From NCBI RefSeq assembly GCF_053078305.1, contig NZ_CP166879.1: a stretch of 64,000 nt of DNA; one strand, 5' to 3'. Position 1 is the first letter of the stretch. Each line of letters opens with the position of its first letter. Shown here piece by piece: positions 31,619 through 64,000 of the stretch. The notes beneath the pieces are model-generated. The model was not told where the DNA came from. It made no database searches and saw only the letters and a program-made list of their open reading frames with translations. Made by a program: the position numbers and the translations under genes.

Positions 31619-31633
31619 GGGTATTTCCTTAAA

Positions 31634-32935: not shown

Positions 32936-32937
32936 GA

Positions 32938-34600: not shown

Positions 34601-34619
34601 GATATTTACGGTGGGAATA

Positions 34620-35243
34620 CTAACGTTTACGGCGGTAAATACGGTGTTCGATCATTACACCTATGATCTGTAAGTTCATATCTGCACTACGAAAAATAGG
34701 GTAATCAGGATTTAGGGGGATTAATTCAAAGTCGTCGATGCCGATTCCTAATGGACGGTATTTTTTAAATGTAGCTTCGTGACCGTCGTTTTTGGCGACA
34801 ACAAACTCCCCTGGTGCAGGACATAGTTCAGGATCGATGATAACAATGTCTCCTTCTTTAAACTCTGGTTGCATGCTGTCGCCATCAATACGTAATGCGA
34901 AGCATGTTTCTGGAATGTCAGAGTCTGCCAAAATATATTCAAATTCCCCTGTCAGATCTGTTATGTCTCTTGCTTCTGTAAGCTCTCCTGCCTGAACGTA
35001 ACTTAATATAGGTATGCGTCTGGTACTTATCTCCGCGAGAGGCATAATATTTTTACCGTTCAGTAGCCAGTCTGGGCTACATTTCAAGGCCTTAGCCAGA
35101 TCCAGAAGATTGCGTGGCTTTCTGGTTCGTCCACTTTCGATGGATTCTATGGATTGTTGGCTAACCCCTGCAGAATTCGCTACTTCCACTTGAGTCATTC
35201 CTAATTCCAAACGACGTGCTTTAAAACGGGCTGCGAGAGACAT
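34620..35243 (-). CDS. cI-like prophage repressor (HTH_XRE plus S24 LexA-like peptidase)
   Basis: N-terminal HTH (LGMTQVEVANSAGVSQQSIESIESG) and C-terminal GDSM...K catalytic dyad; start at MSLAARF. Confidence 0.85.
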   Translation of the reverse strand: MSLAARFKARRLELGMTQVEVANSAGVSQQSIESIESGRTRKPRNLLDLAKALKCSPDWLLNGKNIMPLAEISTRRIPILSYVQAGELTEARDITDLTGEFEYILADSDIPETCFALRIDGDSMQPEFKEGDIVIIDPELCPAPGEFVVAKNDGHEATFKKYRPLGIGIDDFELIPLNPDYPIFRSADMNLQIIGVMIEHRIYRRKR

Positions 35244-35363
35244 GGGATTAGTCCTTCTGGGTTGTATTAATGTGTATACCCACATTAAAAACAATTTTTG
35301 TTGTATTTGACAAACCTCATTTGTTGTTGCTAAATACCACTAAAATTGTATGAGGTGAAAGCA
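35244..35363. promoter_or_regulatory. Divergent repressor/cro control region with operator palindrome
   Basis: Perfect 8-bp inverted repeat ttaatgtg-N6-cacattaa at 35267..35288; TTGACA at 35307..35312 and TAAATA at 35331..35336 oriented toward cro. Confidence 0.5.
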
Positions 35364-35576
35364 ATGACCTTAGCGACCCGAGTAAAAGAACGACGTAAAG
35401 AACTCAAAATGACGCAAGTTACGTTGGCTGAGCTCACAGGAGTGAGCCAGCAGGCAATAAACAGAATTGAAAGTGGTGTTATTGCTCGGCCACGTTATCT
35501 TCTTGAAATGTCTATAGCATTGGATTGCGACCCTAATTGGCTGTTGTATGGCTCACAAAACGATAAAAAGGCTTAA
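35364..35576 (+). CDS. Cro-like HTH regulator
   Basis: MTLATRVKERRKELKMTQVTLAELTGVSQQAINRIESG; gaggtga RBS before ATG at 35364. Confidence 0.7.
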   Translation: MTLATRVKERRKELKMTQVTLAELTGVSQQAINRIESGVIARPRYLLEMSIALDCDPNWLLYGSQNDKKA

Positions 35577-35579
35577 CCC

Positions 35580-47935: not shown

Positions 47936-48308
47936 TTTTCGCCGCGACTTCCCGCAGTTTGCTGACCCTGCCAAATATCCCGAAGCGCAAATCCAGTTTC
48001 GTCTGAATCTGGCCGATGAACTGCTGAGCGAAAACGTCACCGGCAAAAAGTTGTTTCCGTACTTTGCCGGGTTGTTCGTTGCGCACTACATGACGCTCTG
48101 GGCGGCAGACAGCCGGGCGATGCTGGCTGGCGAGCCGGGCGGTTCAACCAATGGAGTTCAGTCCTCAAAGTCCGTGGATAAGGTAAGCGTCAGTTATGAC
48201 ACCAGCGCGACGCTGAATCCTGATGCAGGTTTCTGGAATAACACCCGATATGGCGCTGAATTTTATCAGTTGATCACGATGTTCGGTGCAGGTGGTCGCC
48301 AGCTATGA
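47901..48308 (+). CDS. Putative head-tail connector/adaptor
   Basis: 135 aa; overlapping operon organisation. Confidence 0.4.
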
Positions 48309-48859
48309 GTTTCAAAAGCGGTGTAACAACGAGGGTGGATAACGCTAAGGCTATTCTGGATGCGCTCAGGTCGTTAACCAAAAAAGATGTGCTGGTCGGC
48401 ATCCCTTCGGAAGACAGCGAGCGGGATGATGTTCCGTTTGGTAATGCGGGCATCGGTTACCTCAACGAATACGGCTCACCAGAGCAGAACATCCCGCCAC
48501 GACCTCACCTGGTCCCCGGCGTTAAATCGGCAGAAGAGCAGACGGTGCCGCAGCTCAAAGCCGCGGCGCAGGCTGCACTTGATGGTAATGCTGCGGGAGC
48601 AGAAAGCGCACTCAACCGTGCCGGAACACTGGCCGCTAATGGCGTCAGGCGTTACATGACCATTACCGGCTTTACGCCGCTTGCTGACAGTACTGTTGAA
48701 GCCCGGGCTCGTCGGGGGCGCAAGGGGGCAACACTGGAACTTGCCCGGCGTGCTGCTGGCGAATCCCCGGGAACCGAACTGGCGAAACCATTAATTGACA
48801 CCGGGCAATATCGCAGAGCGATTACCCATGTTGTGAGGGATAAAAATGCCGACTCTTGA
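48305..48859 (+). CDS. Putative head completion protein
   Basis: 184 aa; overlapping starts/stops. Confidence 0.4.
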
Positions 48860-49235
48860 TGTAACAGATGTGCTTTTTGACCCCGATTTTTGCGACTTCA
48901 ATTTGTGGGTAACACGCCGTGTGCAAACGGTGGATGAGGACGGGATCGGCAGCGACAGCGAAGTTAAAAAGCAGTTTGCCGGAGTCGTAACTGTTGATCG
49001 CTCTCTGGAAAACCGTCGTATGCAGGCCGGGCAGGTAATCAGCGGTGCAATTCTGATTGTGACGACTGAGCGACTGACGCAGGGACAGACTGGCCGTGAT
49101 GCCGATATCGTGACGTATCAGGGCCGTGATTATCGTGTGACTTTCGTCGACCCGTATACAGCGTATGGTGCCGGATTCGTTCAGGCGCATTGTGAGTTGC
49201 TGCCGTTTGATGGGGGAATTCCGGTTGAGCAATAA
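48846..49235 (+). CDS. Putative tail completion/neck protein
   Basis: 129 aa. Confidence 0.4.
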   Translation: MPTLDVTDVLFDPDFCDFNLWVTRRVQTVDEDGIGSDSEVKKQFAGVVTVDRSLENRRMQAGQVISGAILIVTTERLTQGQTGRDADIVTYQGRDYRVTFVDPYTAYGAGFVQAHCELLPFDGGIPVEQ

Positions 49236-49773
49236 CACCAGCACAGAGCGCGGATGGCTGATACCAACCAGTGGCGATCCGGATTATGACGAAGCGCTCG
49301 ACAGGCTGTTAAGCCAGTGGATGCGTAACGTTTCCGGTCTGTCTGCCGGGATGGTTCGCCCGCGCTGGCAGAAAGAGCAGCCGCCACTGCTACCGGCTGA
49401 AACGAACTGGTGTGCGTTTGGGGTTATCGGATGGTCAGGTGATGACAGTCCGGCATTCACCAGACAGACTGATGATGGCTCTCAGCTCTGGCGGCATGAA
49501 ACGATTGAGTGTATGGCTTCGTTTTATGGTCCGGCGGGGATGGTGTATGCGTCCCGGTTTCGTGACGGTATATCTGTACCGCAGAACAACGCAGCACTGA
49601 ATGTGCTGGGGCTGTCTCTTGGCGATTACACAGGTCTGACTCCCTTCCCTGAACTTATTAATCAGCAATGGGTCCGCCGCTACGATATGACGGTGCGTCT
49701 GCGCCGGAAGGTTGTGCGCGAGTACGGTATTAAATCGCTGGTGGAAGCACCAGTCATCTTTTTCGGAGATTAA
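49165..49773 (+). CDS. Putative tail terminator/neck protein
   Basis: 202 aa; precedes sheath gene. Confidence 0.4.
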   Translation: MVPDSFRRIVSCCRLMGEFRLSNNTSTERGWLIPTSGDPDYDEALDRLLSQWMRNVSGLSAGMVRPRWQKEQPPLLPAETNWCAFGVIGWSGDDSPAFTRQTDDGSQLWRHETIECMASFYGPAGMVYASRFRDGISVPQNNAALNVLGLSLGDYTGLTPFPELINQQWVRRYDMTVRLRRKVVREYGIKSLVEAPVIFFGD

Positions 49774-49776
49774 GCT

Positions 49777-50922
49777 ATGGCACAGGGCTTGCCTGTATCA
49801 AACGTTGTTAATGTTGATGTGATCATGTCGCCGCGTGCAGCATCAGGGCGAAATTTTGGTGCATTACTCATTCTCGGCCCGTCCACAATCATTCCGGTAA
49901 GTGAGCGCATTCGCCGTTATTCTGCCGCGGAAGATATTGGAAAAGATTTTGGCGTGGAATCACCAGAATATAAGGCTGCGCAGGTGTTTTTCTCTCAATC
50001 ACCGAAACCTCAGGAGGTTTTTGTTGGTCGTTGGGTGAAAACGAAGGGAGACAGCGAACAGGCCACGCCTGAGACGCTGGAGCAGGCTGTGAATGCCATG
50101 CTCGATTATACTTCATGGTATGGGCTGGGGATTGCAGACGATGCAGATATTCCGGATGCAGACTGGCTGAAAGTGGCTGCGGCGATCGAATCCTCTTCTG
50201 TAAGCCGTATTCTGGCGATTACGACAAGCGATGAGAAATGCCTGCAGACTGCATCCAGCGATGATTTGGCATCAAAACTGAAAACCGCCGGATATTCACG
50301 CAGTTTTATTCAGTATTCATCGGGTAATAAATACGCTGCGTTATCTGCATTTGGCCGGGCATTCACGGTTAATTTCAATGGCAGTAATACCGCGATTACG
50401 CTCAAGTTTAAGCAGGCGCCGGGCGTCGGGTATGAAACACTGACAGTCAGCCAGGCATCGGCACTTGATGCAAAAAACTGCAATGTGTTCGTGTACTACC
50501 AGAATGATACGGCTATCCTCCAGCAGGGAGTGATGGCTAACGGCGATTTCTTTGATGAACGCCACGGCCTGGACTGGTTACAGAATTATGTGCAGACCAA
50601 CCTCTATAACCTGCTTTATACCAGCACCACGAAAGTACCCCAGACTGAAGCCGGTATTACCAGACTGTTATCAAGTGTTGAAAAATCACTGGATCAGGCC
50701 GTTCAGAATGGACTGATTGCTCCGGGCGTATGGAACGGTGGCGACCTGGGTCAGTTGTCATCAGGTGACACGCTGCCCAAAGGTTATTACGTATACGCCC
50801 AGCCACTGGATGAACAGGCACAATCAGAACGTGAAGCCCGTAAGGCTCCGGTGATTCAGGCTGCAATAAAACTTGCAGGCGCGGTTCATTACGCTGACGT
50901 ACAGATTAACGTTGTTCGCTAA
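49777..50922 (+). CDS. Tail sheath protein
   Basis: 381 aa, first of the sheath-tube-chaperone-tape measure gene order. Confidence 0.6.
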
Positions 50923-50932
50923 GGGGAAGTGA

Positions 50933-51373
50933 ATGTCTACCTATTCTTTTATGGATGTCACTGCGACGCTGACCGGGCCGACCGGTTCGATTGACCTCGG
51001 GTACGGTTCGGCAAGTTCTGAAGAGGGGATTGTGGTTGCGATGGGCGGTCCTAAAAACACCATGACCATCGGTGCTGATGGCGAAGTGATGCACAGTCTC
51101 CATGCAGATAAAAGCGGGACGATTACCGTTAACCTTCTGAAGACATCACCGACAAATAAAAAATTGTCGCTGGCGTATAACGCACAGAGCCAGTCTTCTG
51201 CCACATGGGGGAATAACGTTATCGTGATCCGCAACAAGGTCAGCGGCGACATCATCACGGCACGCAGTGTTGCGTTCCAGAAACAACCGGATAACGCCAA
51301 CGCTAAAACCGGTAATACGATGCCGTGGGTGTTTGACTGCGGCAAGATTGACCAGGTTCTCGGGGAGTTTTAA
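50933..51373 (+). CDS. Tail tube protein
   Basis: 146 aa following sheath. Confidence 0.55.
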   Translation: MSTYSFMDVTATLTGPTGSIDLGYGSASSEEGIVVAMGGPKNTMTIGADGEVMHSLHADKSGTITVNLLKTSPTNKKLSLAYNAQSQSSATWGNNVIVIRNKVSGDIITARSVAFQKQPDNANAKTGNTMPWVFDCGKIDQVLGEF

Positions 51374-51376
51374 TAC

Positions 51377-51829
51377 ATGGAGTTCGAAATCAAAGGCGTG
51401 AAATATCGCGTGGCAAAACTCAGCGTTTTTGACCAGCTGAAAGTGACCCGCAAACTTCTGCCGGTGCTGGCAGGAATGATGTCAGATTTCGGGAGCATTC
51501 GCTCCCGTTTGCCTGCTGATGGCAAAATCGACACCGTGAAATTCGAGCAGTTAAAACCGGTGTTTGAAACCATGCTCCCGCGTATCGCTGAGGAACTGTC
51601 TTCCCTGACCGAAGATGACACCAGTGCGATTATTCATCCCTGTCTTGCGGTGGTATCGCGGCGTCATATGGACGGATGGGTTCCGGTATTTACCCAGGGC
51701 GAACTGATGTTTGATGATATTGACTTGCTGGTCATGCTGCAGCTGGTGGCGCGGGTGGTCGCCGATTCGCTGGGAAATTTTTTGCCTACACCCCTTACCA
51801 GCACGACGCAGAGCCTGCAACAGGGCTGA
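51377..51829 (+). CDS. Tail assembly chaperone (probable -1 frameshift extension to about 52017)
   Basis: 150 aa before tape measure; T-rich slippery run aaatttttttg at 51775..51785; -1 frame open for 80 codons to TGA at 52015..52017. Confidence 0.5.
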   Translation: MEFEIKGVKYRVAKLSVFDQLKVTRKLLPVLAGMMSDFGSIRSRLPADGKIDTVKFEQLKPVFETMLPRIAEELSSLTEDDTSAIIHPCLAVVSRRHMDGWVPVFTQGELMFDDIDLLVMLQLVARVVADSLGNFLPTPLTSTTQSLQQG

Positions 51830-52006
51830 CGTTTAACAGCCTGCCGGACGGGCTGTCCTACCTTCTCAATCCGGTTGACGCCGGGTTAATTCCTTATACA
51901 GCACTTAAAGATGGCTCTGTCGATTTGTACGATATTGCTCTTTTGAATGACCATCTGGCGGTAAAAGCGGATAACCAGCGGCGCATTGAGAAATGGAGAG
52001 AGGATA

Positions 52007-53995
52007 ATGAACGCTGAAACTATTAAAGATTTCCTCGTCTCGCTTGGCTTCAGTGTGGATGATGCAGGAGCGAAAAAGTTCGGTTCTGTCCTCGCCGGTA
52101 CAACTGCAAATGTCATCAAAATGGGGCTGGCCGTTGAAGGAGCCGCGCTGTCCGTGGTGGCCTTCACGGCTAAGATCGCCTCCGGTCTGGATAATCTTTA
52201 CTGGGCGTCACAGCGCACTGGAGCGACAGTCCAGGGAATTCAGTCTATTGGCTATGCGGTTTCGCAGGTTGGCGGCAGCGTGGACGCTGCGCGATCTTCT
52301 CTGGAAAGCCTCTCCCGGTTTATTCGTAATAATCCCGGTGCAGAGGGATTTCTGAATCGCCTGGGGGTACAGACACGGGATGCCAGCGGTAACATGCGTG
52401 ACATGGCCGCTATTTTTACAGGTGTAGGCCAGAAGCTCAGCGGCATGCCGTATTACCGGGCTAACCAGTATGCGCAGATGCTGGGCATTGACGAAAATAC
52501 CCTTATGGCGATGCGTCGGGGTGTGGGTGGTTTCTCCGGGCAGTACAGCGCAATGGCGAAAGCTATCGGCTTCAATGCTGACGAGGCGGCCAGAAGCTCC
52601 AACAAATTTATGACCTCCCTGCGTGAGTTTAGCGCGATGGCAGGCATGGCCCGTGACAAAATCGGCTCTAATCTTGCGGGTGGACTTGCGGGGTCGCTGG
52701 ACACCCTGCGCCGCCATATCCTGGACAACTTCCCGCGCATCGAGCAGACTCTGACGAAAGCCATAAAAGGCATTCTGGCGCTCGGGGATATTATCGGGCG
52801 GCTGTTCTTCAGACTGATTGAGGGGACATCAGGCCTTATCACCTGGTGGCAATCGCTGGATAAGCAAACGCGGGAGTTGATCTCGCTGTTTGGCGCACTG
52901 ACGATTGCGCTGCGCATTCTGAACAGTACGTTCTGGATGTCGCCGATTGGCCTCATTACCGCGCTGGCGGCGGGGATTGCCCTCCTGTGGGAGGACTATC
53001 AGACCTGGAAGGAAGGCGGCGACAGCCTGATTGACTGGGGCAAGTGGAAACCGGAGGTCGATGCCGCGCTGAAGATGGTTCGTGACCTTAAAACAACCGT
53101 TAACGACCTGGTGAAAGCGCTGGCGAAACTGCTCAATATTGACCTCAAATCATGGTCCCTGAAGTGGGATTTCAGCAACTTCATCGACCAGATGGGCGAA
53201 TTCAGCAAAATGCTGAACATGATCGCCGACCTGCTCAACGCTATCAAAGATGGCCGCTGGGCTGATGCCGTCAGCATCGGCAAACAGATACTTAATCAGG
53301 GCAGCGAAAATCCGTCAGCGATGCCGATGGTTACAGACAGCGCTAACAGTACTGCCGACTGGATTAAAGAGCACTGGGGATTCGATCCCCGCAGCGTGGG
53401 CCGGACGGTACGCGGCTGGTTTGGTGATGATGAGCCGGAACAACATGCACAGGCTACGAAACGAGGAGAACGGAATAACAATCCGGGAAACCTTAATTTT
53501 GCTGGTCAGGCAGGGGCTTCTCTTGAACGCCCGGGCGGGCGATTTGCCAGATTTGAAACTGCCTTTGATGGATTACGGGCTCTTGCTCGTCAGTTAATGC
53601 TGTACGCCGGACGGGGAATAAACAGTGTGGAGAAAATTATCTCTACCTGGGCACCTGCGTCTGATAATAACAACACAACTGCGTATATCAGGGCTGTATC
53701 GCAACGACTGGGAGTGGATCCCCGGGCTGCCCTGAATATGAGCGATCCGCAAACCATGTCAGCATTGATGAGCAGCATTATCCAGCATGAAAATGGAAGA
53801 AATATCTATTCTCGAGAGCTGATTAATAAGGCTGCCGTGGCGGGAATTAGTGGCAAAATGACAGAGGTTAACCAGCAAAATACTTACCACATTTACGGTG
53901 GCGGAGATCCGCACGCTGTCGGTAATGAGGTTGCACGTCGGCAACAGTCTGCAAATGCTCAGGTCATGCGAAGTAATCAGGTGAGGGTGGGTTAG
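52007..53995 (+). CDS. Tail tape measure protein
   Basis: About 660 aa, Ala/Gly/Leu-rich helical protein with hydrophobic central segments; ATG at 52007 preceded by ggagagagga. Confidence 0.7.
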   Translation: MNAETIKDFLVSLGFSVDDAGAKKFGSVLAGTTANVIKMGLAVEGAALSVVAFTAKIASGLDNLYWASQRTGATVQGIQSIGYAVSQVGGSVDAARSSLESLSRFIRNNPGAEGFLNRLGVQTRDASGNMRDMAAIFTGVGQKLSGMPYYRANQYAQMLGIDENTLMAMRRGVGGFSGQYSAMAKAIGFNADEAARSSNKFMTSLREFSAMAGMARDKIGSNLAGGLAGSLDTLRRHILDNFPRIEQTLTKAIKGILALGDIIGRLFFRLIEGTSGLITWWQSLDKQTRELISLFGALTIALRILNSTFWMSPIGLITALAAGIALLWEDYQTWKEGGDSLIDWGKWKPEVDAALKMVRDLKTTVNDLVKALAKLLNIDLKSWSLKWDFSNFIDQMGEFSKMLNMIADLLNAIKDGRWADAVSIGKQILNQGSENPSAMPMVTDSANSTADWIKEHWGFDPRSVGRTVRGWFGDDEPEQHAQATKRGERNNNPGNLNFAGQAGASLERPGGRFARFETAFDGLRALARQLMLYAGRGINSVEKIISTWAPASDNNNTTAYIRAVSQRLGVDPRAALNMSDPQTMSALMSSIIQHENGRNIYSRELINKAAVAGISGKMTEVNQQNTYHIYGGGDPHAVGNEVARRQQSANAQVMRSNQVRVG

Positions 53996-54582
53996 TGGAT
54001 ATTCTCTCTACACTTTTTCATCAGCAGAGCAGAAAAATAGGAATGATTGTTCCCAGTGTTGTTATTTCAGAGAAGCATACAGATATGCTTGAAATAACAG
54101 AGCATCCGGTAGAGGTTGGGGCCGCTGTCGCTGATCATGCCTATAAAAAACCGTCAGAAGTGGTGATGGAGGTTGGTTTCGCCGGTGGCGGCGCATTGCT
54201 GGATTTTGCCAGTAATCTGACGGCTACCAGCCTGCTCGGCCTGAGTCCTCAGCAGACGTATCAGGAGCTACTGGATCTGCAGGAAAGCCGTATCCCCTTC
54301 GATGTGGTAACCGGTAAACGACTGTACAGCAACATGTTGATCCGGGCGTTGGAAGTGACGACGGACAAGACAACCGAAAACGTCCTGTCCGCCGTCCTCA
54401 CCCTGAGGGAGGTCATTATCTCCCGGACACAGCAGATTACCGTCGCGGATAAAACCAACATGAAGGAAGGGGCCAGCACGTCGGCGGTACAGAACAGCGG
54501 CAACAAAACCACAAAGCCTCCAGATACTTCACTGCTGAAAAGCATCACGGGTAACGTGGCGTCATTACTGGGGGGCGGCTAA
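53995..54582 (+). CDS. Putative tail/baseplate assembly protein
   Basis: 195 aa; module position only. Confidence 0.4.
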   Translation: MDILSTLFHQQSRKIGMIVPSVVISEKHTDMLEITEHPVEVGAAVADHAYKKPSEVVMEVGFAGGGALLDFASNLTATSLLGLSPQQTYQELLDLQESRIPFDVVTGKRLYSNMLIRALEVTTDKTTENVLSAVLTLREVIISRTQQITVADKTNMKEGASTSAVQNSGNKTTKPPDTSLLKSITGNVASLLGGG

Positions 54583-54884
54583 TGACAATTCAGGAAATTC
54601 CGCTGACAGCGGACAACCAGCAGTTCAGCATCGTCCTGGGGGGTGTCACCTGGCGGATTAGCATCATATGGCGCGATCTGTACTGGATTATGGACCTGCA
54701 GAACGACAGAGGGGAGCCGGTAATCTCCGGTATTCCTCTTGTCACTGGTGCTGACCTGCTGGCGCAGTACGCCTGTATGGGGCTTGGTTTTAAGCTGGTG
54801 GTGGTCTGTGATGACAACACACAGGATTACCCCACAAAAACTGACCTGGGCGGTCGCAGCCATTTACTGGTATCAACGGAGTAA
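54582..54884 (+). CDS. Putative tail protein
   Basis: 100 aa. Confidence 0.35.
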   Translation: MTIQEIPLTADNQQFSIVLGGVTWRISIIWRDLYWIMDLQNDRGEPVISGIPLVTGADLLAQYACMGLGFKLVVVCDDNTQDYPTKTDLGGRSHLLVSTE

Positions 54885-54886
54885 GC

Positions 54887-55951
54887 ATGTCACAGAACTG
54901 GATGAGACATTTCGAGCTGCAGCTTGTGGACGGGAACGGTCAGGGAATTGAGCTAAGTGATTTCAAAGTCACCTTTACGATCGACTGGTTCAACATCAGC
55001 AGCGCGTCCCGGGTAGGGACTATCAAAATTTATAACCTCTCGGCAGATACTGTGAACCGAATTACCGGGCAGGAGTTTTCGAAAGTGCGTCTGATTGCCG
55101 GTTACGACGGTATCGCGCCGGAGGTGTCAGCAAGCGACGTAGGGACCGTGCGGGGAGTTGACGCGGCGGACGTGGGCCAGAGAGATGGCCGCAACTACGG
55201 ACTGATTTTCAGCGGTGAAATTCGCTACTCGGTCACAGGAAAAGACAGTCCGGTTGATACCTACGTCCTGATTCAGGCAGCAGATACTGATCTGGCTTTT
55301 GCCACCAGTATAACCTCACAGACGCTGGCTGCCGGTTACACGGTCGCTGATGTGAACCGTGCGCTGATGAAAGACTTCGAAGCCAAAGGCGCGACCGAAG
55401 GCCTGACGCCTGAAATGCCTGCTACTGTATTCCCCCGGGGGCGGGTACTCTTTGGCATGACGCGGCATCTAATGGATAACGTAGCCGGACAATGTGGCGC
55501 AACATGGCAATTCGTGGACGGTCAGCGCCAGATGGTGGCGAATAACGAATATGTTCACGAAGCGATTGTGCTCAACAGCGCTACCGGGCTTATTGGCATG
55601 CCGCAGCAGACTATCGGTAACGGCGTAAACGTCCGCGCGCTTATTAATCCGAACATCCGGGTTAACGGGCTCATTCAGCTGGATCAGGCTTCCGTCTATC
55701 GTACCGCGTTGTCGAACAACGATATTGCGATGGCTGGTGGTCAGATCACCGACCAGAACACGGACGGAAATATCACGCTCAGCGGCACCACATCGCAGCC
55801 TGCCTGCATCGCAACGGATGGCGTTTATATTGTGCGCGGGATTATGTACACTGGCGACACAAGGGGCCAGGCGTGGTACATGGATATGATGTGTGAAGCG
55901 CGTGGCGCGGCGGATCTTGTTTCCTCATCAGCGAGGGAAAGAGGGCTTTAA
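54887..55951 (+). CDS. Putative baseplate hub / Mu P-like tail protein
   Basis: 354 aa; module position upstream of spike and wedge genes. Confidence 0.5.
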   Translation: MSQNWMRHFELQLVDGNGQGIELSDFKVTFTIDWFNISSASRVGTIKIYNLSADTVNRITGQEFSKVRLIAGYDGIAPEVSASDVGTVRGVDAADVGQRDGRNYGLIFSGEIRYSVTGKDSPVDTYVLIQAADTDLAFATSITSQTLAAGYTVADVNRALMKDFEAKGATEGLTPEMPATVFPRGRVLFGMTRHLMDNVAGQCGATWQFVDGQRQMVANNEYVHEAIVLNSATGLIGMPQQTIGNGVNVRALINPNIRVNGLIQLDQASVYRTALSNNDIAMAGGQITDQNTDGNITLSGTTSQPACIATDGVYIVRGIMYTGDTRGQAWYMDMMCEARGAADLVSSSARERGL

Positions 55952-56286
55952 TGAAACGGTTATGTTTGGCGTTAGTTATGATGGTTACTGCTCCGGCGAT
56001 GGCTGCAATTCAGTGCGGCAACTACACGATGACCGGTGACGGAATGACTGTTATTAACGGTGAAACTGTCACATCACAGAAGATAAAATTTCTGGGAAAA
56101 GATGGTGACTATTCAAACATGAAAATGGACATGGGCCTGATGCCTTCCCGTGATGGTAACAATTACGGCTTTGAGTTTGTGAAACGTAACGGAAAAGCTT
56201 TCCTGAACGTCCAGCTGCTGCAGAACAGCATGGACGCGCCGAAAATCATTGGATCTTTCCCGTGTAAAAAAGTGAGCAGCAAGTGA
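55951..56286 (+). CDS. Secreted small protein of unknown function (cargo inside baseplate operon)
   Basis: 111 aa with cleavable signal peptide MKRLCLALVMMVTAPAMA; start overlaps upstream stop (TAATGA). Confidence 0.45.
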   Translation: MKRLCLALVMMVTAPAMAAIQCGNYTMTGDGMTVINGETVTSQKIKFLGKDGDYSNMKMDMGLMPSRDGNNYGFEFVKRNGKAFLNVQLLQNSMDAPKIIGSFPCKKVSSK

Positions 56287-56795
56287 CAGTTGATGATGAT
56301 CCTTTGAATTCATTTCAAGACCCTGACTTTCAGGAACTTCTCGGCGGAATTGATATTACTCTTGTTATAAGGTTTTTTAATTATTTTTCGCGTTTCGAAT
56401 ATGCGTTAAAAAGAATTAATTTCAAAAAAACTGATCGTAGAAATTATCTAATCGGTGCTGACTGGAGCCGCTACGCTACTGATGATACGCGGCCTTTATA
56501 TCCTACTGGAAATAGAAATGTCGATAGGGCAGTTGAGTATCTATGTCAGCAACCTGTGAAGCAGCAGAGGCATGATTTTTCGTGGGAGGATAAACCTCCA
56601 ATCGAACCTCATTCTCTTGCTGAAGCATTAAAGCAGATCCCGTATATAAGAAATAATCTCTTTCACGGCGGGAAGTATTTACGTCCCGACCCCGTTCGTG
56701 ATGAAAAGTTATTGAAATACTCTATTTATTTGATGCAGTTGTGTTTGATAACTGATAATCAGCTTTCTGAATACTTTAATACTATCCACCGATAG
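56283..56795 (+). CDS. AT-rich protein of unknown function (cargo inside baseplate operon)
   Basis: 170 aa; markedly AT-rich versus flanking baseplate genes; followed by a hairpin plus T-run. Confidence 0.45.
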   Translation: MTVDDDPLNSFQDPDFQELLGGIDITLVIRFFNYFSRFEYALKRINFKKTDRRNYLIGADWSRYATDDTRPLYPTGNRNVDRAVEYLCQQPVKQQRHDFSWEDKPPIEPHSLAEALKQIPYIRNNLFHGGKYLRPDPVRDEKLLKYSIYLMQLCLITDNQLSEYFNTIHR

Positions 56796-56805
56796 TCATT
56801 CTTCA

Positions 56806-56840
56806 TGAGATAAAACCTGCCACCCGGCGGGTTTTTTGCT
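56806..56840 (+). terminator. Possible terminator after cargo gene
   Basis: accc-ggcg-gggt short stem followed by ttttttgcttttt. Confidence 0.4.
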
Positions 56841-56855
56841 TTTTGGAGCCTAACA

Positions 56856-57608
56856 ATGGCAGTAACTGACCAGACCCGCAGTGGCGATCTTGCCGAAACA
56901 TTTAAATCTGAACGGGAAACAACAAAGAACCAGATCCGTGTCGCCTTGCCTGGCATTATTCAGTCATTCGATCCTGACGCGGTGACGGCGGTTGTGCAGC
57001 CAGCTATCCGGTCGGTTGAAAAGGATAACGACGGTAACCGCATTACCAAAAATTACCCATTGCTGGTGGATGTGCCAGTGGTATTCCCGCGCGGCGGAGG
57101 CTGTACGTTGACTTTTCCGGTAAAAGCTGGGGATGAGTGTCTTGTCGTTTTTGCCGATCGTTGTATTGATTTCTGGTGGCAGAGCGGCGGGATACAGGAG
57201 ACGGTTGATGACAGAATGCATGATTTATCGGATGCGTTTTGTATTGTCGGTCCCCAGTCGCAGGCAAGGAAGATTAGCGGTATTAATACCAGTGCCACAC
57301 AGTTGCGTAGTGACGACGGCAGCACCTATTTTGAGCTTAATCCTGATACCCGGAAAATTAAAATTGTCGCTCCGGGGGGGCTTGATGTGGTTGCCCCCCT
57401 GGCTGATTTTTCTGAGAAAGTAACCATTCATGGCCTGTTAACCTGGATGGGGGGCATGGTGGGGTCTGTTGTTTCTGGTGTGGCTTCAAAAATCACTGGT
57501 GCTGTTGAGTTTTTGGGTAGCGTGAAGGCTAACGGCAAGCCAATCGATGATACGCACACTCATGGTGGTGTTCAGCGCGGTGGAAGCAATACCGACGGAG
57601 TAAACTGA
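56856..57608 (+). CDS. Baseplate spike/central needle protein (Mu gp45-like)
   Basis: 250 aa; Gly-rich C-terminal repeats and HTHGGVQRGGSNT tip motif. Confidence 0.55.
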   Translation: MAVTDQTRSGDLAETFKSERETTKNQIRVALPGIIQSFDPDAVTAVVQPAIRSVEKDNDGNRITKNYPLLVDVPVVFPRGGGCTLTFPVKAGDECLVVFADRCIDFWWQSGGIQETVDDRMHDLSDAFCIVGPQSQARKISGINTSATQLRSDDGSTYFELNPDTRKIKIVAPGGLDVVAPLADFSEKVTIHGLLTWMGGMVGSVVSGVASKITGAVEFLGSVKANGKPIDDTHTHGGVQRGGSNTDGVN

Positions 57609-57961
57609 TGCGATACAGACGTGAAGACGCCGATGGCGATTACACCTTTGGCAGCGGTGATGACACCTGGCTGATTAACTCACCGGAGGCCGTGGCGCAG
57701 GCGGTAAAAACGCGATTCGAATTGTGGTATGGGCAATGGTTTCTCGACACCACCGAGGGGACTCCGTGGATCCAGTCCGTACTCGGTAAGCAGAAGCCGG
57801 AAACCTACAACCTGGCGATCCGTAAGCGCATCCTCGAAACGCGGGGCGTTAAATCAATCCTCTCTTTCAATACGACGGTGGATACCACGACCCGACGTGT
57901 CATGTTTTCCGCTGAAATCGACACTCTTTATGGAATAACGACTGTTACATCGGAGGCGTAA
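57608..57961 (+). CDS. Baseplate wedge protein (gp25/W-like)
   Basis: 117 aa, precedes baseplate J. Confidence 0.5.
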   Translation: MRYRREDADGDYTFGSGDDTWLINSPEAVAQAVKTRFELWYGQWFLDTTEGTPWIQSVLGKQKPETYNLAIRKRILETRGVKSILSFNTTVDTTTRRVMFSAEIDTLYGITTVTSEA

Positions 57962-59160
57962 TGGCTCTGAACCTTGATTCTCTCGGTTTATCTGCAAAGG
58001 TAACCGCGGAGGGGATCAGTGCGCCTGATTATCAGACGATACTCAGCACCCTGATTAGCTATTTTCAGCAGATTTATGGCAGTGATGCCTACCTCGAACC
58101 GGACAGCAAAGACGGCCAGATGGTGGCTCTGATGGCGCTGGCGATTCATGATGCCAATAATATGGCGATAACTGTCTACAACTGTTTTTCACCGGCAACC
58201 GGCTATGGGGCTGCACTGACCAGTAACGTGAAAATAAATGGTATTTCACGTAAAGGCGCGACGAACTCTACGGTTGATTTGCTTCTTACAGGAACTGCCG
58301 GAACAACCATCATTAATGGCAGCGTGAAAGACAGTAATAATGTGATATGGCGTTTGCCTGCTTCAGTAGTGGTCGGCGTGGATGGTACAGTGATGGCGAC
58401 CGCAACATGTTCCGTCAGTGGTGCAGTGGCGGCGCTGGCTGGAACTATCACTGAAATTAATACGCCAACCCGTGGCTGGGTTTCGGTAACTAATCCTGCT
58501 GCGGCTACTGTGGGCACTCTGGCAGAAACTGACGCGGAGTTACGTATCCGTCAGTCGCAAAGTGTTGCGTTGCCATCAATAACCCCATTTGAAGCACTGG
58601 ATGGTGCTGTTTCTAATGTTACCGGTGTAACCCGCCACAAACTCTATGAAAACGATACTGGTTCGGAGGACGGTAACGGGTTACCGCCACACTCTGTTGC
58701 TGTAATTGTGGATGGCGGTGATGTGACGGATATTGCTCAGGCTATCAGAGGGAATAAAGGCCAGGGGACAGCCACTCACGGTACAACATCCGTTACGGTT
58801 CCGGATAAATACGGCAATCCCCATGTAATCAAATTCTCGCGTTCCAGTGATGTGCCTGTTTATGCCCGGATTAAATTAAAAGTTTTTACGGGTTATACCT
58901 CACAGATAGGGCAGCAGATCCAGCAGGCTATTTCCGACTATATCAATAGTTTGACGATTGGTGATTCGGTCCTTTTAAGTCGCATTTACTCACCGGCGAA
59001 TCTTGGCGTGGTGAGTGGCGGGAATGCACGCTATTACGATATTCAGGAACTGACGATTGGGAAATCCCCGGGGGCTTTGTCGTCATCAAACATTGATATC
59101 AGATACAACGAATCTGCGTCCTGTACCCCGGAAAATATCGTTATAACGGTGGAGTCATGA
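57961..59160 (+). CDS. Baseplate J-like protein
   Basis: 399 aa; size and position typical of baseplate J. Confidence 0.6.
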   Translation: MALNLDSLGLSAKVTAEGISAPDYQTILSTLISYFQQIYGSDAYLEPDSKDGQMVALMALAIHDANNMAITVYNCFSPATGYGAALTSNVKINGISRKGATNSTVDLLLTGTAGTTIINGSVKDSNNVIWRLPASVVVGVDGTVMATATCSVSGAVAALAGTITEINTPTRGWVSVTNPAAATVGTLAETDAELRIRQSQSVALPSITPFEALDGAVSNVTGVTRHKLYENDTGSEDGNGLPPHSVAVIVDGGDVTDIAQAIRGNKGQGTATHGTTSVTVPDKYGNPHVIKFSRSSDVPVYARIKLKVFTGYTSQIGQQIQQAISDYINSLTIGDSVLLSRIYSPANLGVVSGGNARYYDIQELTIGKSPGALSSSNIDIRYNESASCTPENIVITVES

Positions 59161-59837
59161 GCAAATACACCGAACTAATCACGAACTACCACGCCACCAA
59201 ACCTAAATTTCTTGCGCATGTTGATCTGATGACCCGGCCGCTTATTGATGTTGCGGCTGCCACCAGAGGGCTGATTACTGCATTTGATATTGACTCTGCG
59301 GTTGGTGTGCAACTTGACATTCTGGGATTGTGGATCGGACGTAGCCGTGTTGTCAGCCAGCCTATCTCAGGTGTCTATTTCAGCTGGGATACCGACGGGC
59401 TTGGATATGATCAGGGGGTATGGCAGGGACCATACGATCCTGATTCCGGATACATGTACCTCAGCGATGAAACTTATCGTGTCATTCTTAAAGCGAAGAT
59501 TGCGATTAATAACTGGGATGGACGGAATGATTCGCTTCCGGCAATTCTTGACGCTGCAACAGCAGGATCCGGGCTGCGAATGCAGATAGTCGATAACCAG
59601 GACATGACGATATCGGTCTGGGTCTTTCCTGATACTGATATTTCAGATGTATCGCGTGAGTTAATTGCGGCAATTAAACAGGGGTATCTCACAGTAAAAG
59701 CCGCCGGGGTATGGGCGGGTGGCATTGAAACACCTTCGGTGGAAACCCCATCGGAAGGCTCAAAATTTTTTGGTTTTGATATGGATAACGAATTCATCAG
59801 TGGTTTTGATGTAGGAGCATGGGGAGTATTACTCTGA
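59157..59837 (+). CDS. Baseplate wedge/tail fibre attachment protein (Mu gp48 / P2 I-like)
   Basis: 226 aa following baseplate J. Confidence 0.5.
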   Translation: MSKYTELITNYHATKPKFLAHVDLMTRPLIDVAAATRGLITAFDIDSAVGVQLDILGLWIGRSRVVSQPISGVYFSWDTDGLGYDQGVWQGPYDPDSGYMYLSDETYRVILKAKIAINNWDGRNDSLPAILDAATAGSGLRMQIVDNQDMTISVWVFPDTDISDVSRELIAAIKQGYLTVKAAGVWAGGIETPSVETPSEGSKFFGFDMDNEFISGFDVGAWGVLL

Positions 59838-60292
59838 TGGCGAAAAATGACTTTAAAGCGTTTGCAACGGATCGAAATGCCAATGTTATATCGCAGGAGG
59901 AATGGGAAGCGTTGCCCGCGCTTTTATCCGGATTTACAGCAGGGAAAGCCTCCAGTGCGCAAGTCAATAAGGTTATTCGGCAGGTCAGCTTTATTGCTGC
60001 AGCTCTGGCCCAGTTTGTAAGTGATAAAACGCAACGGGATGTGCTTGATAATGGTGATCTGCCCGGTTTTGTTGAATTGCTGGGATCGGGGTTTGCTGTT
60101 GAATACCTGAGCCGCAAGAATCCGTTTGGTGATATCAAATCGGATGGCACGGTGAAAACGGCTCTCGAAAACCTTGGTTTGGGAGAAGAGCACAGCGTTA
60201 AGCCGGGTTGTTTCTGCCTGCGTCAGCTTCCGCCCGGCCTGCAATTTCAGCTGAATCAGACTAATGGAAGCCATAGCCGCATCAATCAGTGA
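59819..60292 (+). CDS. Tail fibre, constant N-terminal part; truncated in the present orientation of the invertible segment
   Basis: ORF crosses the left recombination site at 60174 (…ALENLGLGE) and then reads antisense to tfa for about 40 codons to a stop. Confidence 0.55.
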   Translation: MGSITLMAKNDFKAFATDRNANVISQEEWEALPALLSGFTAGKASSAQVNKVIRQVSFIAAALAQFVSDKTQRDVLDNGDLPGFVELLGSGFAVEYLSRKNPFGDIKSDGTVKTALENLGLGEEHSVKPGCFCLRQLPPGLQFQLNQTNGSHSRINQ

Positions 60293-60715
60293 CTGGCGCC
60301 GTACTTCTGCCGCGTCTACTGCGGCGTTATGCTGTGCCTCAGTGTCGGTCACCCATTTCTCACCATCCCATTTATCGTATGACGTTAACGGGGCGATAGT
60401 GGTTGTATTTTCAGGGTAATCACCCGGAACTGTGATTTCTTTTGATTCTCCTGTTTCGGTGCTATAGACGATTTCACCGCGATGGTCTGGCACATATTCC
60501 CATGAGTTAAAATCTGCAGAACGGCAAATTGCATAACCAGCTTTATATGAGCCAGGAGCATCTAAACAGGAACATGCCGGGATACCGACACCCACAGCAA
60601 GATATTCAGTTGATGTGGAAATATATTCCCGTGTTTCACCATCATAATTATAAACGGTAATGTCTCCGGCCTTTGTGGCGATGAGTTCATTATTTAATAC
60701 AGCTTTACTTATCAT
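59924..60715 (-). CDS. Tail fibre assembly protein (Tfa/U-like); ORF currently reads through the left recombination site
   Basis: N-terminal 180 aa inside the segment resemble Tfa proteins (…SWEYVPDHRGEIVYSTETGESKEITVPGDYPENTTTIAPLTSYDKWDGEKWV…); last 83 codons lie outside the segment, antisense to the fibre gene. Confidence 0.6.
   Translation of the reverse strand: MISKAVLNNELIATKAGDITVYNYDGETREYISTSTEYLAVGVGIPACSCLDAPGSYKAGYAICRSADFNSWEYVPDHRGEIVYSTETGESKEITVPGDYPENTTTIAPLTSYDKWDGEKWVTDTEAQHNAAVDAAEVRRQSLIDAAMASISLIQLKLQAGRKLTQAETTRLNAVLFSQTKVFESRFHRAIRFDITKRILAAQVFNSKPRSQQFNKTGQITIIKHIPLRFITYKLGQSCSNKADLPNNLIDLRTGGFPCCKSG
60162..60187. repeat. Left recombination site of invertible segment (gix/hix-like, 26 bp)
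   Basis: ctctcgaaaacc-tt-ggtttgggagaa: two 12-bp quasi-palindromic half-sites around a 2-bp core, inverted copy at 61171..61196. Confidence 0.65.
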
Positions 60716-61184
60716 GCAGCCCTCACAATATAATTAAAGGCGATGTTACGGGAGCGGGTTTCAGATGCTGTGCGAACTGAGCGAGATGCGTCGAATGTCC
60801 AGTTATAAGCGCCATAACCCTCAATAATTTCGGCTTCCTTTAGACCTGTAGATAATACTTGCCCATGTTGACTAAATGGCCCTGAACTAAGTACGTCTCT
60901 AAAAAGCTGGGTACGCCCAAAAGAACCAACAATATTCTGAATTGCATCATTCTGTGCAGATAATAAGTTACGACCAGAGTCAATCCCGCGCCCATCATCC
61001 CAGCCACGAATAAATTCACCGCGTAAATCTGGTAATTTTAATGTTGGGTAAGCCTTTGCCAGATTTGGGTACTTTTCAGAAGAAAATACTGCTCCGTTAC
61101 ATTTTAGCCACCCCATTGGCGGAGTGGCTGAAGGCCACGGAACAGGCACACCAACCGGTAATGCAGAGCCTTCTCCCAAACCAA
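60174..61184. other. Invertible DNA segment (about 1 kb) carrying one tail-fibre C-terminus plus tfa cassette
   Basis: Flanked by inverted 26-bp sites (21 of 24 positions identical); invertase gene immediately adjacent. Confidence 0.65.
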
Positions 61185-61224
61185 CGTTTATGAAAATGCA
61201 GAAATAACGAGCAAATGGCATCAT
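60712..61224 (-). CDS. Tail fibre variable C-terminal cassette (tail-collar-like domain), silent in current orientation
   Basis: Open frame begins within the right recombination site (…NVGLGEGSALP…); GWLKCNGAVFSSEKYPNLAKAYPTLKLPDLRGEFIRGWDDGRGIDSGRNLLSAQNDAIQN resembles the phage tail collar domain. Confidence 0.6.
   Translation of the reverse strand: MMPFARYFCIFINVGLGEGSALPVGVPVPWPSATPPMGWLKCNGAVFSSEKYPNLAKAYPTLKLPDLRGEFIRGWDDGRGIDSGRNLLSAQNDAIQNIVGSFGRTQLFRDVLSSGPFSQHGQVLSTGLKEAEIIEGYGAYNWTFDASRSVRTASETRSRNIAFNYIVRAA
61171..61196. repeat. Right recombination site of invertible segment
   Basis: ttctcccaaacc-aa-cgtttatgaaaa, inverted copy of the left site. Confidence 0.65.
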
Positions 61225-61250
61225 TCCTGCTTTTGTCAGGGAGATCTACC

Positions 61251-61805
61251 ATGCTTATTGGCTATGTACGCGTATCAACAAATGACCAGAATACCGATCT
61301 ACAACGTAATGCGTTGAACTGTGCAGGATGCGAGCTGATTTTTGAAGACAAGATAAGCGGTACAAAGTCCGAAAGGCCGGGACTGAAAAAACTGCTCAGG
61401 ACATTATCGGCAGGTGACACTCTGGTTGTCTGGAAGCTGGATCGGCTGGGGCGTAGTATGCGGCATCTGGTCATTCTGGTTGAGGAGTTGCGCGAACGTG
61501 GCGTTAATTTTCGCAGCCTGACGGATGCTATTGATACCAGCACACCGATGGGGCGTTTTTTCTTTCATGTGATGGGGGCCCTGGCTGAAATGGAACGAGA
61601 ACTGATTGTTGAACGAACAAAAGCTGGACTGGAAGCTGCTCGCGCACAGGGACGAATTGGTGGACGTCGTCCCAAACTTACACCAGAACAATGGGCGCAG
61701 GCCGGGCGACTAATTGCATCAGGAGTTCCTCGCCAGAAGGTGGCGATCATTTATGATGTTGGCGTATCGACTTTGTATAAGAAGTTTCCGGTCGGAGATA
61801 AATGA
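61251..61805 (+). CDS. pin: Serine DNA invertase (Pin/Gin/Hin family)
   Basis: MLIGYVRVSTNDQNTDLQRNAL... with catalytic Ser and C-terminal HTH; closely resembles e14 Pin as recalled; ATG at 61251 after aggga. Confidence 0.88.
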   Translation: MLIGYVRVSTNDQNTDLQRNALNCAGCELIFEDKISGTKSERPGLKKLLRTLSAGDTLVVWKLDRLGRSMRHLVILVEELRERGVNFRSLTDAIDTSTPMGRFFFHVMGALAEMERELIVERTKAGLEAARAQGRIGGRRPKLTPEQWAQAGRLIASGVPRQKVAIIYDVGVSTLYKKFPVGDK

Positions 61806-61885
61806 AACCGTAGCACGTCGTATGCAAGAACGTGCCACGGCTGGCTGATAAGCTTGTAAAAATATTGAACAGGGAGTGGAGCATT

Positions 61886-62533
61886 CTATGAAGCTAATTT
61901 GTTTAATTTCATTTGTAGTGACTTTACTTCTTGGTCGATAATGTCGAATCCCTTATTGACAGCATCTCTTAGCTCTGCATCAATATTTTTTATCCCTTGA
62001 GCATAATCTACCATTATATTTATTTTTGCATCATGTAATCTCTTATACATGGTTTTATTTTTGTTATTGTCTGCCATGCCAATAAGGATTTTTTCATAAT
62101 CCTCAATGAGTTTGTTGTTTCCTTTAAATGATTGTATTAATGAGCGTGAATATGTGTATATGTTAATTATTGAGTCTCTAGCAGAATCATTTAGTTTTGC
62201 AATGACATTCGCATTTTGCTCATAGAATGTGAAATTATCATCCCCTACAGGGAATGTGAGAATCAACATTTGTCCCGGTTTTATATTATCAATGTGTGTT
62301 TTCATCCTTTTATTATATAAATTGATTAGGGTGAAAACTTCTCCCTTAACTCCTTTTAATACTGAAAGTTGTAATTCAAGGGATTCTCTTTCTGTCTCTA
62401 CTTTAGACAGCTTAGCTTGTTGGGTAACTCCTTTTAGGGTAAACCATCCGCCAATAAGAGTACCAACTAGAGCTGTGAGGGAGGAGGATAACCATCCAGG
62501 TATGCTATTTAAAAGATTACTAAATTCACTCAT
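61886..62533 (-). CDS. Membrane-anchored protein of unknown function (cargo at prophage right end)
   Basis: 215 aa; N-terminal TM helix (WLSSSLTALVGTLIGGWFTL), predicted coiled coil, N/K-rich soluble domain; AT-rich. Confidence 0.45.
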   Translation of the reverse strand: MSEFSNLLNSIPGWLSSSLTALVGTLIGGWFTLKGVTQQAKLSKVETERESLELQLSVLKGVKGEVFTLINLYNKRMKTHIDNIKPGQMLILTFPVGDDNFTFYEQNANVIAKLNDSARDSIINIYTYSRSLIQSFKGNNKLIEDYEKILIGMADNNKNKTMYKRLHDAKINIMVDYAQGIKNIDAELRDAVNKGFDIIDQEVKSLQMKLNKLAS

Positions 62534-62593
62534 TATAAGTACTCGCTAATATTGAACGATATATATATATCAAATTATTATAAAACTCGTCAG

Positions 62594-62935
62594 CTACTGG
62601 AGAAGGCTACCTGAACTTCGATCTATTCCTGCATCCATATAGTTGATGGTCTTCTGGAGCTCTTCGATTAGGGCAACAGCTTTTGCTCGAGAAATGCATA
62701 TTAGTTGATCCGGAAATTCTTGTAAGGGCCAGTTTGGTATACAGGCCATGTTATCAATGAAGGATGCAGACAAGTAAACTTCATTGGTAACCAGAGAATA
62801 GCTTACCTCAAAATTGGTGAGTTCCGGCAAACTGCTAACGTTTGACTCTTTTCTGCGCATAATATTATCCATGACTGTAATTATGTACAGGTGATGGTCT
62901 TCAATTTCGAAGAGGGAGTCAAGGGGGAGTCTCAA
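62594..62935 (-). CDS. Protein of unknown function (cargo, upstream partner)
   Basis: 113 aa, AT-rich, same strand as and 60 bp upstream of the 215-aa gene. Confidence 0.45.
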   Translation of the reverse strand: MRLPLDSLFEIEDHHLYIITVMDNIMRRKESNVSSLPELTNFEVSYSLVTNEVYLSASFIDNMACIPNWPLQEFPDQLICISRAKAVALIEELQKTINYMDAGIDRSSGSLLQ

Positions 62936-63062
62936 ATGAACCGTTATAGAAAAAGGGGGGGGATCTTTGTGTTGCTGAACTTATGCAAAATTTTTTTGCA
63001 CCATAAATCCAACAACACATTCAATAACACATTGCTGTATCACTATGAAAATAAATGTGTTT

Positions 63063-63119
63063 TTATTTGATTTCACACATATCACAATTGATGCATTTTT
63101 TAGTGATTAACAGCGCCAT
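63063..63119 (-). pseudogene. yfhL: Remnant of original yfhL 5' end (19 codons) at attR
   Basis: Minus-strand ATG at 63119 encodes [18 protein letters not shown] then stop; first 16 residues match YfhL N-terminus; diverges at the att core. Confidence 0.6.
63072..63089. repeat. attR core (18-bp direct repeat)
   Basis: ttcacacatatcacaatt identical to 22676..22693. Confidence 0.6.
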
Positions 63120-63174
63120 AAGGAAACTCTCAAAACAACACAAACCGGGCGGGCATTATACGCGCATTCTTTAC

Positions 63175-64000
63175 TCAGACCAGTTTTTTCACCAGCGCTT
63201 CACTATGACGAATACGTTCTGGTGCCAGTTCCAGATCCTGCTGAATCAGCGCAATGAACAGCAAATCCGTTAACATTCCCTGCGCGTGACAAGCAGAGAT
63301 TGAAGCACTGTTTGTCGCTTGTTCTTCGGCAATGGTATACAGGCAATGAGAAGCACGCTGTTGCAGGGCATTGGGAGTAAAGCCGGTAATCGCCAGCACT
63401 TTTCCGCCCACTCGCAGCATCTCATCTGCCGCCAGGTTTAACTCGCGTCGTACACCGGTGTAAGAAATGGCTAATAACAGATCGTCAGGGGACGACGCCT
63501 GTACGGTAGCGAGTAGCGCATGCATATCGCGCACTGCGGCAGCATTGAAGCCAATCTTCATCAGCTTCCAGGCAAAGTTTTGCGCCACCAGACCCGAAGC
63601 GCCAATACCGGTCAGAATTATCCGCCGCGCAGAGCGCAACATTGTTACGCATTCATGCAGTTTCTCTTCACTATTAACGTTTAGCGTTGCGTACATAGCG
63701 GCAGTATTTTCTTTAATCAGTTTTTCGCCGACCAGCCGTAACGGATCATCACCGCGGATTTGGTTATGAATGGGCACGGAGGGCGATTCCGGCTGGCTTG
63801 CCAGCGCTTCACTCAACGCCAACTTAAGCGCCGGAAAACCTTTATAGCCGAGTTTTTGCGCGAACTTCACGACGCTGGACTGACTGACTCCGGCTTCGTT
63901 GGCCAGTTGCTGAGAGCTTAAATGGCGCGCCGTATCAGGTTGTAGCAGCAGATAATCCGCCAGTTTTTTATCACTCTGGGCAAGCCCCTGGTAACGCTGA
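63175..64000 (-). CDS. yfhH: RpiR/MurR-family transcriptional regulator (YfhH-like); 5' end runs off window
   Basis: HTH region …LSSQQLANEAGVSQSSVVKFAQKLGYKGFPALKLALSEAL… followed by SIS domain; reading frame still open at window end. Confidence 0.8.
   Translation of the reverse strand, partial: QRYQGLAQSDKKLADYLLLQPDTARHLSSQQLANEAGVSQSSVVKFAQKLGYKGFPALKLALSEALASQPESPSVPIHNQIRGDDPLRLVGEKLIKENTAAMYATLNVNSEEKLHECVTMLRSARRIILTGIGASGLVAQNFAWKLMKIGFNAAAVRDMHALLATVQASSPDDLLLAISYTGVRRELNLAADEMLRVGGKVLAITGFTPNALQQRASHCLYTIAEEQATNSASISACHAQGMLTDLLFIALIQQDLELAPERIRHSEALVKKLV

Follow-up and report, generated by a model that had tools for sequence, protein, structure and literature searches.

The window analysed here is a stretch of DNA of 64,000 nucleotides (contig NZ_CP166879.1), and the feature under study lies close to its right end. 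A prophage of ~40.4 kb, occupying about 22694..63071, is present between two parts of the E. coli ferredoxin gene yfhL. At its left junction stands a complete yfhL next to the phage integrase gene. At its right junction, a short open reading frame is followed by the intergenic region of yfhH and yfhL and then by yfhH itself. The features of both junctions, along with the genes at the right end of the prophage, are collected in Table 1.

Table 1. Features of the two prophage junctions and of the right end of the prophage, listed from right to left in the window.
Feature	Position	Strand	Basis or remark
yfhH (MurR/RpiR-family regulator), cut by the end of the window	63175..64000	-	ORF
Native yfhH-yfhL intergenic region retained at attR	63120..63174	-	Sequence, footprint; predicted start at about 63145..63150
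Displaced native yfhL 5' fragment	63063..63119	-	Sequence, translation, empty-site comparison
attR copy of the 18-bp core TTCACACATATCACAATT, crossover region	63072..63089	.	Repeat comparison
attP right arm	62952..63071	.	Conserved in all yfhL-type prophages regardless of cargo
LexA-box-like palindrome CTGTAATTATGTACAG	62875..62890	.	Perfect CTGT-N8-ACAG, 15 nt upstream of the 88-aa gene
First attR-proximal gene, 88 aa, phrog_17793 (PHROG of unknown function)	62594..62860	-	PHROG match
Second attR-proximal gene, 215 aa	61886..62533	-	ORF; PGAP annotates the same strand
Terminator-like hairpin (14 pairs, 61806..61842), then UUUCAUUUAU	61798..61842	-	Closes the minus-strand unit at the 3' end of pin
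Tyrosine integrase, 465 aa	22938..24335	+	PF00589 (E 5e-7), phrog_1 integrase (E 5e-26)
Phage-supplied region upstream of rebuilt yfhL and int (attP left arm)	22724..22937	.	Sequence
Reconstituted intact yfhL, 86 aa	22463..22723	-	ORF; PGAP annotates as yfhL
attL copy of the 18-bp core TTCACACATATCACAATT	22676..22693	.	Repeat comparison

The short reading frame at the right junction is 57 nt long and runs on the minus strand from 63119 to 63063, with 18 sense codons and a stop; it opens with ATG GCG CTG and closes with ATC AAA TAA. Its first 16 codons (63119..63072) are host DNA, identical at 48 of 48 nucleotides to the native yfhL 5' end of empty-site strains, and the last two (IK) and the TAA come from the phage. 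The first-pass annotation had described a 19-codon piece of yfhL that was displaced to attR and fused to phage DNA. The displacement and the fusion are confirmed by the 48-nucleotide match and by the empty-site boundary at 63072, and the sequence and its translation were given correctly; the yfhL portion, though, amounts to only 16 codons, with two codons and the stop belonging to the phage. Its assignment of the junction to attR likewise holds, given the integrase gene, the identical 18-bp repeat at both ends and the rest of yfhL 40 kb away. The host 48-mer occurs once in the window, with no copies expected in shuffled sequence, and PGAP leaves the remnant without annotation in carrier strains such as OkiPb01695. 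The remnant is a by-product, at attR, of site-specific phage integration into codons 11-16 of yfhL.

The limits of host and phage DNA were set by comparison with genomes in which the site is empty. Of 5,426 complete E. coli genomes, 5,425 gave a match to 62700..63400 in a megablast search. The match spans the full query in 123 of them; in the other 5,302, position 63072 of the window is exactly where the homology sets in, and yfhL and yfhH are covered. In the empty-site locus of O157:H7 PA20 (L002), positions 1-2038 correspond to 20676-22713 of the window (pdxJ-acpS-shoB-yfhL) and positions 2001-2929 to 63072-64000. By this alignment, host and phage DNA meet at 22713 on the left and at 63072 on the right, with an overlap of 38 bp. 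The 18-bp core TTCACACATATCACAATT is present as an identical direct repeat at the two junctions. The 30 nt beside it, toward the start codon, are 63% identical with 11 differences, and the protein sequence is preserved.

The integrase gene adjoins attL. A near-identical copy of the prophage in OkiPb01695 is annotated with an excisionase-like HTH protein, replication genes, a myovirus-type tail module, a pin invertase and tail-fibre genes; no stx gene is annotated in it. An imperfect inverted repeat lies at 62968..63019 in the right arm of the attachment site, together with several copies of an AACACA(T) motif; AACACA(T)-type repeats recur in the left arm at 22843..22870. To judge from their sequence, the motifs of both arms are probably arm-type sites of the integrase. 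A comparison of the reconstructed attP with a phage collection brought up no free-phage record in which attP is contiguous. E. coli 'phage' records that match the right arm were rejected as evidence of attP, as they include the host flank from yfhH to tadA. On a related point, the GenBank 'complete phage genomes' vB_EcoM-611R5, -606R2 and -683R1 contain the host genes yfhH, pgpC and tadA (L004, ON470588.1 40486-42739), and thus are prophage predictions with host flank and not packaged genomes.

At attL, codons 1-10 of yfhL (22694..22723) are phage-derived and differ from the native gene at 11 nucleotides. Seven codons are changed, of which five are synonymous and two give the conservative replacements A2S and K8R, so that the product begins MSLLITKR. 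The arginine at position 8 is the native residue of the yfhL product in Serratia and Xenorhabdus. The DNA in front of this start codon is also supplied by the phage. It carries a promoter-like site on the minus strand, TCGATA-17-AATAAT at 22771..22743, which we infer to serve as a promoter, and a TGATTT...GTAA...TGAAATG pattern that is common to the element-type yfhL upstream regions of other genera. With a phage-derived head and upstream DNA, the regulation of yfhL in lysogens may therefore differ from that of the native gene.

Taken together, these features point to a particular geometry of integration. The attP of the phage would lie inside an 18-codon mini-ORF that imitates the 5' end of yfhL and has the identical 18-bp core. 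Recombination within such a mimic swaps the two 5' ends. At attL, an intact yfhL is now headed by the phage copy, along with the phage upstream DNA, and the native head, with its promoter and leader, is joined to the right arm of the phage, where the reading frame stops after two phage codons. From the sequence comparisons, it is highly likely that the right junction is the attR scar of a ~40.4-kb temperate phage that integrated at yfhL by an exchange of 5' ends.

Attachment sites that copy the end of a gene are familiar from phage 21 and e14, which integrate in icd, and from the tRNA-gene integrators P22 and P4. In all of these, attP copies the end of the target gene, integration preserves the gene, and a displaced fragment is left at the other junction. 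In the classical icd and tRNA cases it is the 3' end that is duplicated, and the host promoter stays with the gene; here, in contrast, it is the 5' end, and the promoter and leader are exchanged along with it. A closer analogue in mechanism is found in the elements with dusA-specific integrases, which replace the 5' end of the gene, offer putative promoters and leave a remnant 5' end (Farrugia et al. 2015, PMC4482086). As in the window, the 5' end of a conserved gene is swapped for element sequence and a native remnant persists at the far junction. The target, however, is dusA and not yfhL, and the two do not belong to the same family; membership of the dusA-associated integrase (DAI) elements was therefore rejected for the present prophage.

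The nearest known relative of the integration system is that of Serratia phage vB_SspS_OS31 (MT843276). Its integrase is 77% identical to that of the window (355 of 464 residues, no gaps), and its att lies in the same codons (~9-16) of the host 2[4Fe-4S] ferredoxin gene. It also has a phage-borne 5' mimic next to int, the record starting with TCGCACATGTCGCAGTTGATGCA...CAT, the reverse complement of the mimic. Both of its arms have AACACA-type repeats, and next to its right end there are accessory genes on the minus strand, with a LexA site. The two phages differ in other respects: OS31 is a siphovirus of the Hendrixvirinae with an annotated att repeat of 23 bp, whereas the prophage of the window has a myovirus-type tail, an identical core of 18 bp and other cargo. 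Bujak et al. 2020 (PMC7556043) describe OS31 as inserted in the host 2[4Fe-4S] ferredoxin gene and mention many prophages in homologous genes. Furthermore, Bobay et al. 2013 (PMC3603311) include yfhL among the targets of prophages, and the gene is known as the site of Stx2b prophages (PMC10675304, PMC12029490). These published prophages share the target, but yfhL is given there as disrupted or as an insertion site, while here its reading frame is rebuilt at attL. The gene-end-duplicating attP, the yfhL site and the OS31-type integrase group are thus all published, and with such an attP, site and integrase the remnant is an unavoidable consequence.

The remnant does not stand alone at attR, since the native intergenic region comes with it. 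The first-pass annotation had presumed that the yfhL promoter was kept there beside yfhH, and several lines of evidence support this. A perfect -10 hexamer, TATAAT, lies at 63160..63155 on the minus strand and is followed by GC-rich GCCCGCCC (local sequence ...CTGGTCTGAgtaaagaatgcgcgTATAATgcccgcccggtttgtgttgttttgagagtttccttATG). A degenerate-pattern scan with one genome per species gave 120 loci, 115 of them usable for the -10 count, and in 64 of these 115 a TATAAT is found at -45..-41 from the ATG of yfhL. Among 55 distinct sequences, the block GCG-TATAAT-GCCCGCCC is 85-100% conserved (85-98% for the flanking GCG and GCCCGCCC), as against only 36-78% for the 11 bases that separate it from the yfhH stop; TATAAT is present in 53 of the 55 loci having the GC-rich block. 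The divergent strain KV7 shows the same constraint: none of 103 positions is changed in the 55-bp spacer and the first 48 coding nucleotides, compared with 12 of 86 in the 3' end of yfhH.

The -35 element is weak, and its best candidates, CTGGTC or TGGTCT (2-3 of 6 positions), fall within the last codons of yfhH. A consensus promoter scan gave no minus-strand site in 63120..63175. This negative was set aside because the scan needs at least four of six matches in each hexamer, and a perfect -10 with a weak -35 falls below that requirement. No mapped yfhL TSS came up among the published TSS entries queried: one dataset gave just an sRNA table entry, and in the EDL933/MG1655 TSS comparison table a yfhH TSS (-52) is given, with no yfhL among the rows listed. 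Elsen et al. 2010 (PMC2984482) cite the Zaslaver reporter library for the activity of a promoter in the 5' sequence of yfhL, and report that they detected yfhL mRNA. Conservation and the cited reporter activity together suggest that a real promoter is very probably located at 63155..63160, and that the stranded host region very probably still fires. The clear phylogenetic footprint gives the probable location of the yfhL promoter.

The GC-rich block at 63147-63154 has the look of a discriminator and resembles those of stringently controlled promoters; we know of no regulation of this type for yfhL. A minus-strand scan showed no terminator-like site between yfhH and the remnant, and therefore transcripts of yfhH can also enter the prophage.

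The genes that such transcription would meet are two minus-strand ORFs. They had been placed earlier at 61886..62935. Two ORFs are indeed found there, but the nearer one is the 88-aa gene and not a frame of 62594..62935: the alignment with PHROG 17793 begins at residue 26 of the long ORF, the gene is annotated with a length of 267 nt in the related record, and strain 97-3250 has CTG in place of the in-frame ATG further upstream. The G+C content of 61886..62935 is 35%, against 49% for the prophage. The 215-aa protein matched no family in Pfam, PADLOC or PHROGs; it has a hydrophobic N-terminus. In other prophages with the same arm, different genes replace the 215-aa gene, so that the position looks like a variable accessory (moron) slot.

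In front of the 88-aa gene, the palindrome CTGTAATTATGTACAG agrees with the 20-bp LexA consensus at 14 of 20 positions; the number of such sites expected for the window as a whole is 0.74. The box is conserved in strains 97-3250 and OkiPb01695. In relatives, DinI-like genes are preceded by LexA sites at the corresponding position (L013, 2421-2436 and 2449-2464), and a site is annotated in OS31. With a LexA-like operator before the first cargo gene, the cargo most likely has its own SOS-controlled promoter.

Two smaller features lie between this box and the attP arm. Tandem 11-nt repeats, AAGAGGGAGTC / AAGGGGGAGTC, are seen at 62910-62931 just upstream of the LexA-like box, and may be an operator or part of the cargo promoter region. 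The second feature is a homopolymer of eight G (C8 on the minus strand) at 62955-62962, with the attP arm on one side and the promoter region of the cargo on the other; in other strains it is shorter and interrupted, for example GGGGAG in 97-3250.

Transcription from the stranded promoter had been proposed to run antisense into the right arm, toward the cargo. The proposal is wrong in its direction: both ORFs lie on the minus strand, as the remnant does, and read-through would thus be sense. Host transcripts would enter the prophage in sense to the two accessory genes, after first crossing an attP arm that leaves ~200 nt untranslated between the remnant stop at 63063 and the first cargo gene. 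The inverted repeat at 62968..63019 lies in this path. As minus-strand RNA it folds with -26.3 kcal/mol (z = -4.65). The hairpin is made of inverted copies of the AACACA motif and is conserved whatever the cargo. No U-tract comes after it, AAAGAUCCCCCCCC following instead, and it has no match in Rfam. For these two reasons its reading as a terminator or a structured RNA was rejected, and the simplest view is that it is part of the attP arm. A minus-strand scan from 63175 to 61886 gave no canonical intrinsic terminator. The untranslated stretch after the remnant is C-rich and G-poor, with C/G up to 3.2, and from its base composition could load Rho.

The remnant is most likely a passive scar. 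Beyond that, the question is how far the incoming transcripts would go. One answer is that they end in the attP arm, either by Rho after the early stop, or at the hairpin, or against bound Int, IHF or LexA, with no effect on the cargo. The stop two codons past the junction, which is kept in all nine E. coli variants and is similarly early in OS31 and in two further loci (L077, L123), speaks for this reading, but in AT-rich DNA early stops are to be expected by chance. The C-rich, G-poor stretch that follows would suit Rho, but this dependence is read from base composition, and a canonical intrinsic terminator is absent. The SOS-type operators of the cargo itself also count in its favour. On balance, the chances that the scar is inert and insulated in this way are about even.

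Another answer is that the stranded yfhL promoter, along with read-through from yfhH, gives a meaningful, lysogen-specific sense expression of the 88-aa and 215-aa genes. The promoter is conserved, and no intrinsic terminator stands in the path. Further, the cargo points the same way as the transcription that enters from the host, in the window as well as in 97-3250, CUVET16-465, F1022 and OS31, and a sigma-70 site at or above the scan threshold is absent directly upstream of either cargo gene. Co-orientation, however, is equally expected of any accessory gene expressed in lysogeny. The RNA would also have to survive ~200 nt without translation after a premature stop, through a stretch that looks suited to Rho loading, and a strong hairpin. 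Moreover, LexA-type operators accompany the cargo both here and in relatives, and their control would be undone by constitutive read-through. Such a capture of the host promoter is possible, yet we consider it rather doubtful. A broader form of the idea is an integration-dependent exchange of promoters, in which the host yfhL promoter is placed in sense upstream of the accessory genes and a phage promoter before yfhL, adding host-physiological to SOS control. This may be regarded as unlikely. If true, it would make yfhL phage-regulated, and the arrangement would be common to many yfhL-targeting elements of Enterobacterales. Under the preferred reading of a passive scar, the remnant would contribute, at most, a degree of constitutive read-through, in sense, to an accessory unit that is under SOS regulation and stops at the 61806..61842 hairpin.

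An antisense interference of host-promoter transcription with the cargo is highly improbable: transcription from the host side is indeed antisense to pin and to the late (tail) operon of the phage, both plus-strand features, but the two annotated, homology-supported cargo ORFs are on the minus strand, and the terminator-like hairpin before pin makes antisense transcription into pin unlikely. An Rfam CssrB match at 61783-61839 was dismissed, as it scores 31.7 bits against a gathering score of 76 and coincides with this hairpin.

As the native leader and start codon are kept, the 18-aa peptide is probably made, and a free phage would encode an equivalent mini-ORF across attP; that the peptide is a functional small protein nevertheless has next to no likelihood, for one cluster motif is left with just three of its four cysteines, the C-terminal residues differ among relatives (IK, II, EIK, H, QWFK...), and the geometry of recombination accounts fully for the existence of the ORF.

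The arrangement is not peculiar to one strain. Among the 5,426 complete E. coli genomes, 158 have the right arm (62860..63071), with an identity of 85-100% and with yfhH beside it in every case. The same 215-aa cargo gene is also present in 79 genomes, including ETEC H10407 and O103:H2 12009. Nine diverse prophages share the arm and an identical remnant, with the stop at the same place (IK*, II* or EIK*), and differ in their cargo, which includes DinI-like genes, DUF2335 genes and siphovirus-type tail fibres. In other species, an element-type region homologous to that of the window is found upstream of yfhL in many genera (Serratia, Edwardsiella, Proteus, Providencia, Xenorhabdus, Erwinia). 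The TGATTT...GTAA...TGAAATG pattern is seen at 22724-22800 of the window and in the loci L037, L050, L061, L078, L089, L092, L102, L111, L112, L124 and L134, and thus extends over Serratia, Edwardsiella, Providencia, Xenorhabdus, Erwinia and E. coli. This shared pattern suggests that yfhL is already headed by mobile-element DNA in the reference genomes of many species. Two further pairs of a remnant and a full-length gene were identified, one in an Erwinia MAG (L077/L078) and one in another species (L123/L124).

By itself, the remnant matters little: both the type of integration and the site are known, and a scar such as this is what they would be expected to leave. Around it, some small additions can be made: yfhL is rebuilt, its promoter has a footprint, read-through would be sense to the cargo, and the first cargo gene has a LexA-type operator. 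Prophages of this kind rebuild yfhL and do not leave it 'disrupted', as surveys list it. For expression studies of the right-end genes, for example in H10407 and O103:H2 12009, it is relevant that the host promoter points in the sense direction and that a LexA-type operator precedes the first gene.

Two observations concern the neighbourhood of the right end. In OkiPb01695, a carrier of the same prophage, yfhH is annotated as frameshifted (L001 3476-4325, NZ_AP042570.1), which is probably incidental. Inside the prophage, a pin-type DNA invertase gene (61215-61805) lies beside opposed tail-fibre and tail-fibre-assembly genes (59800-61805), an arrangement typical of an invertible host-range segment.
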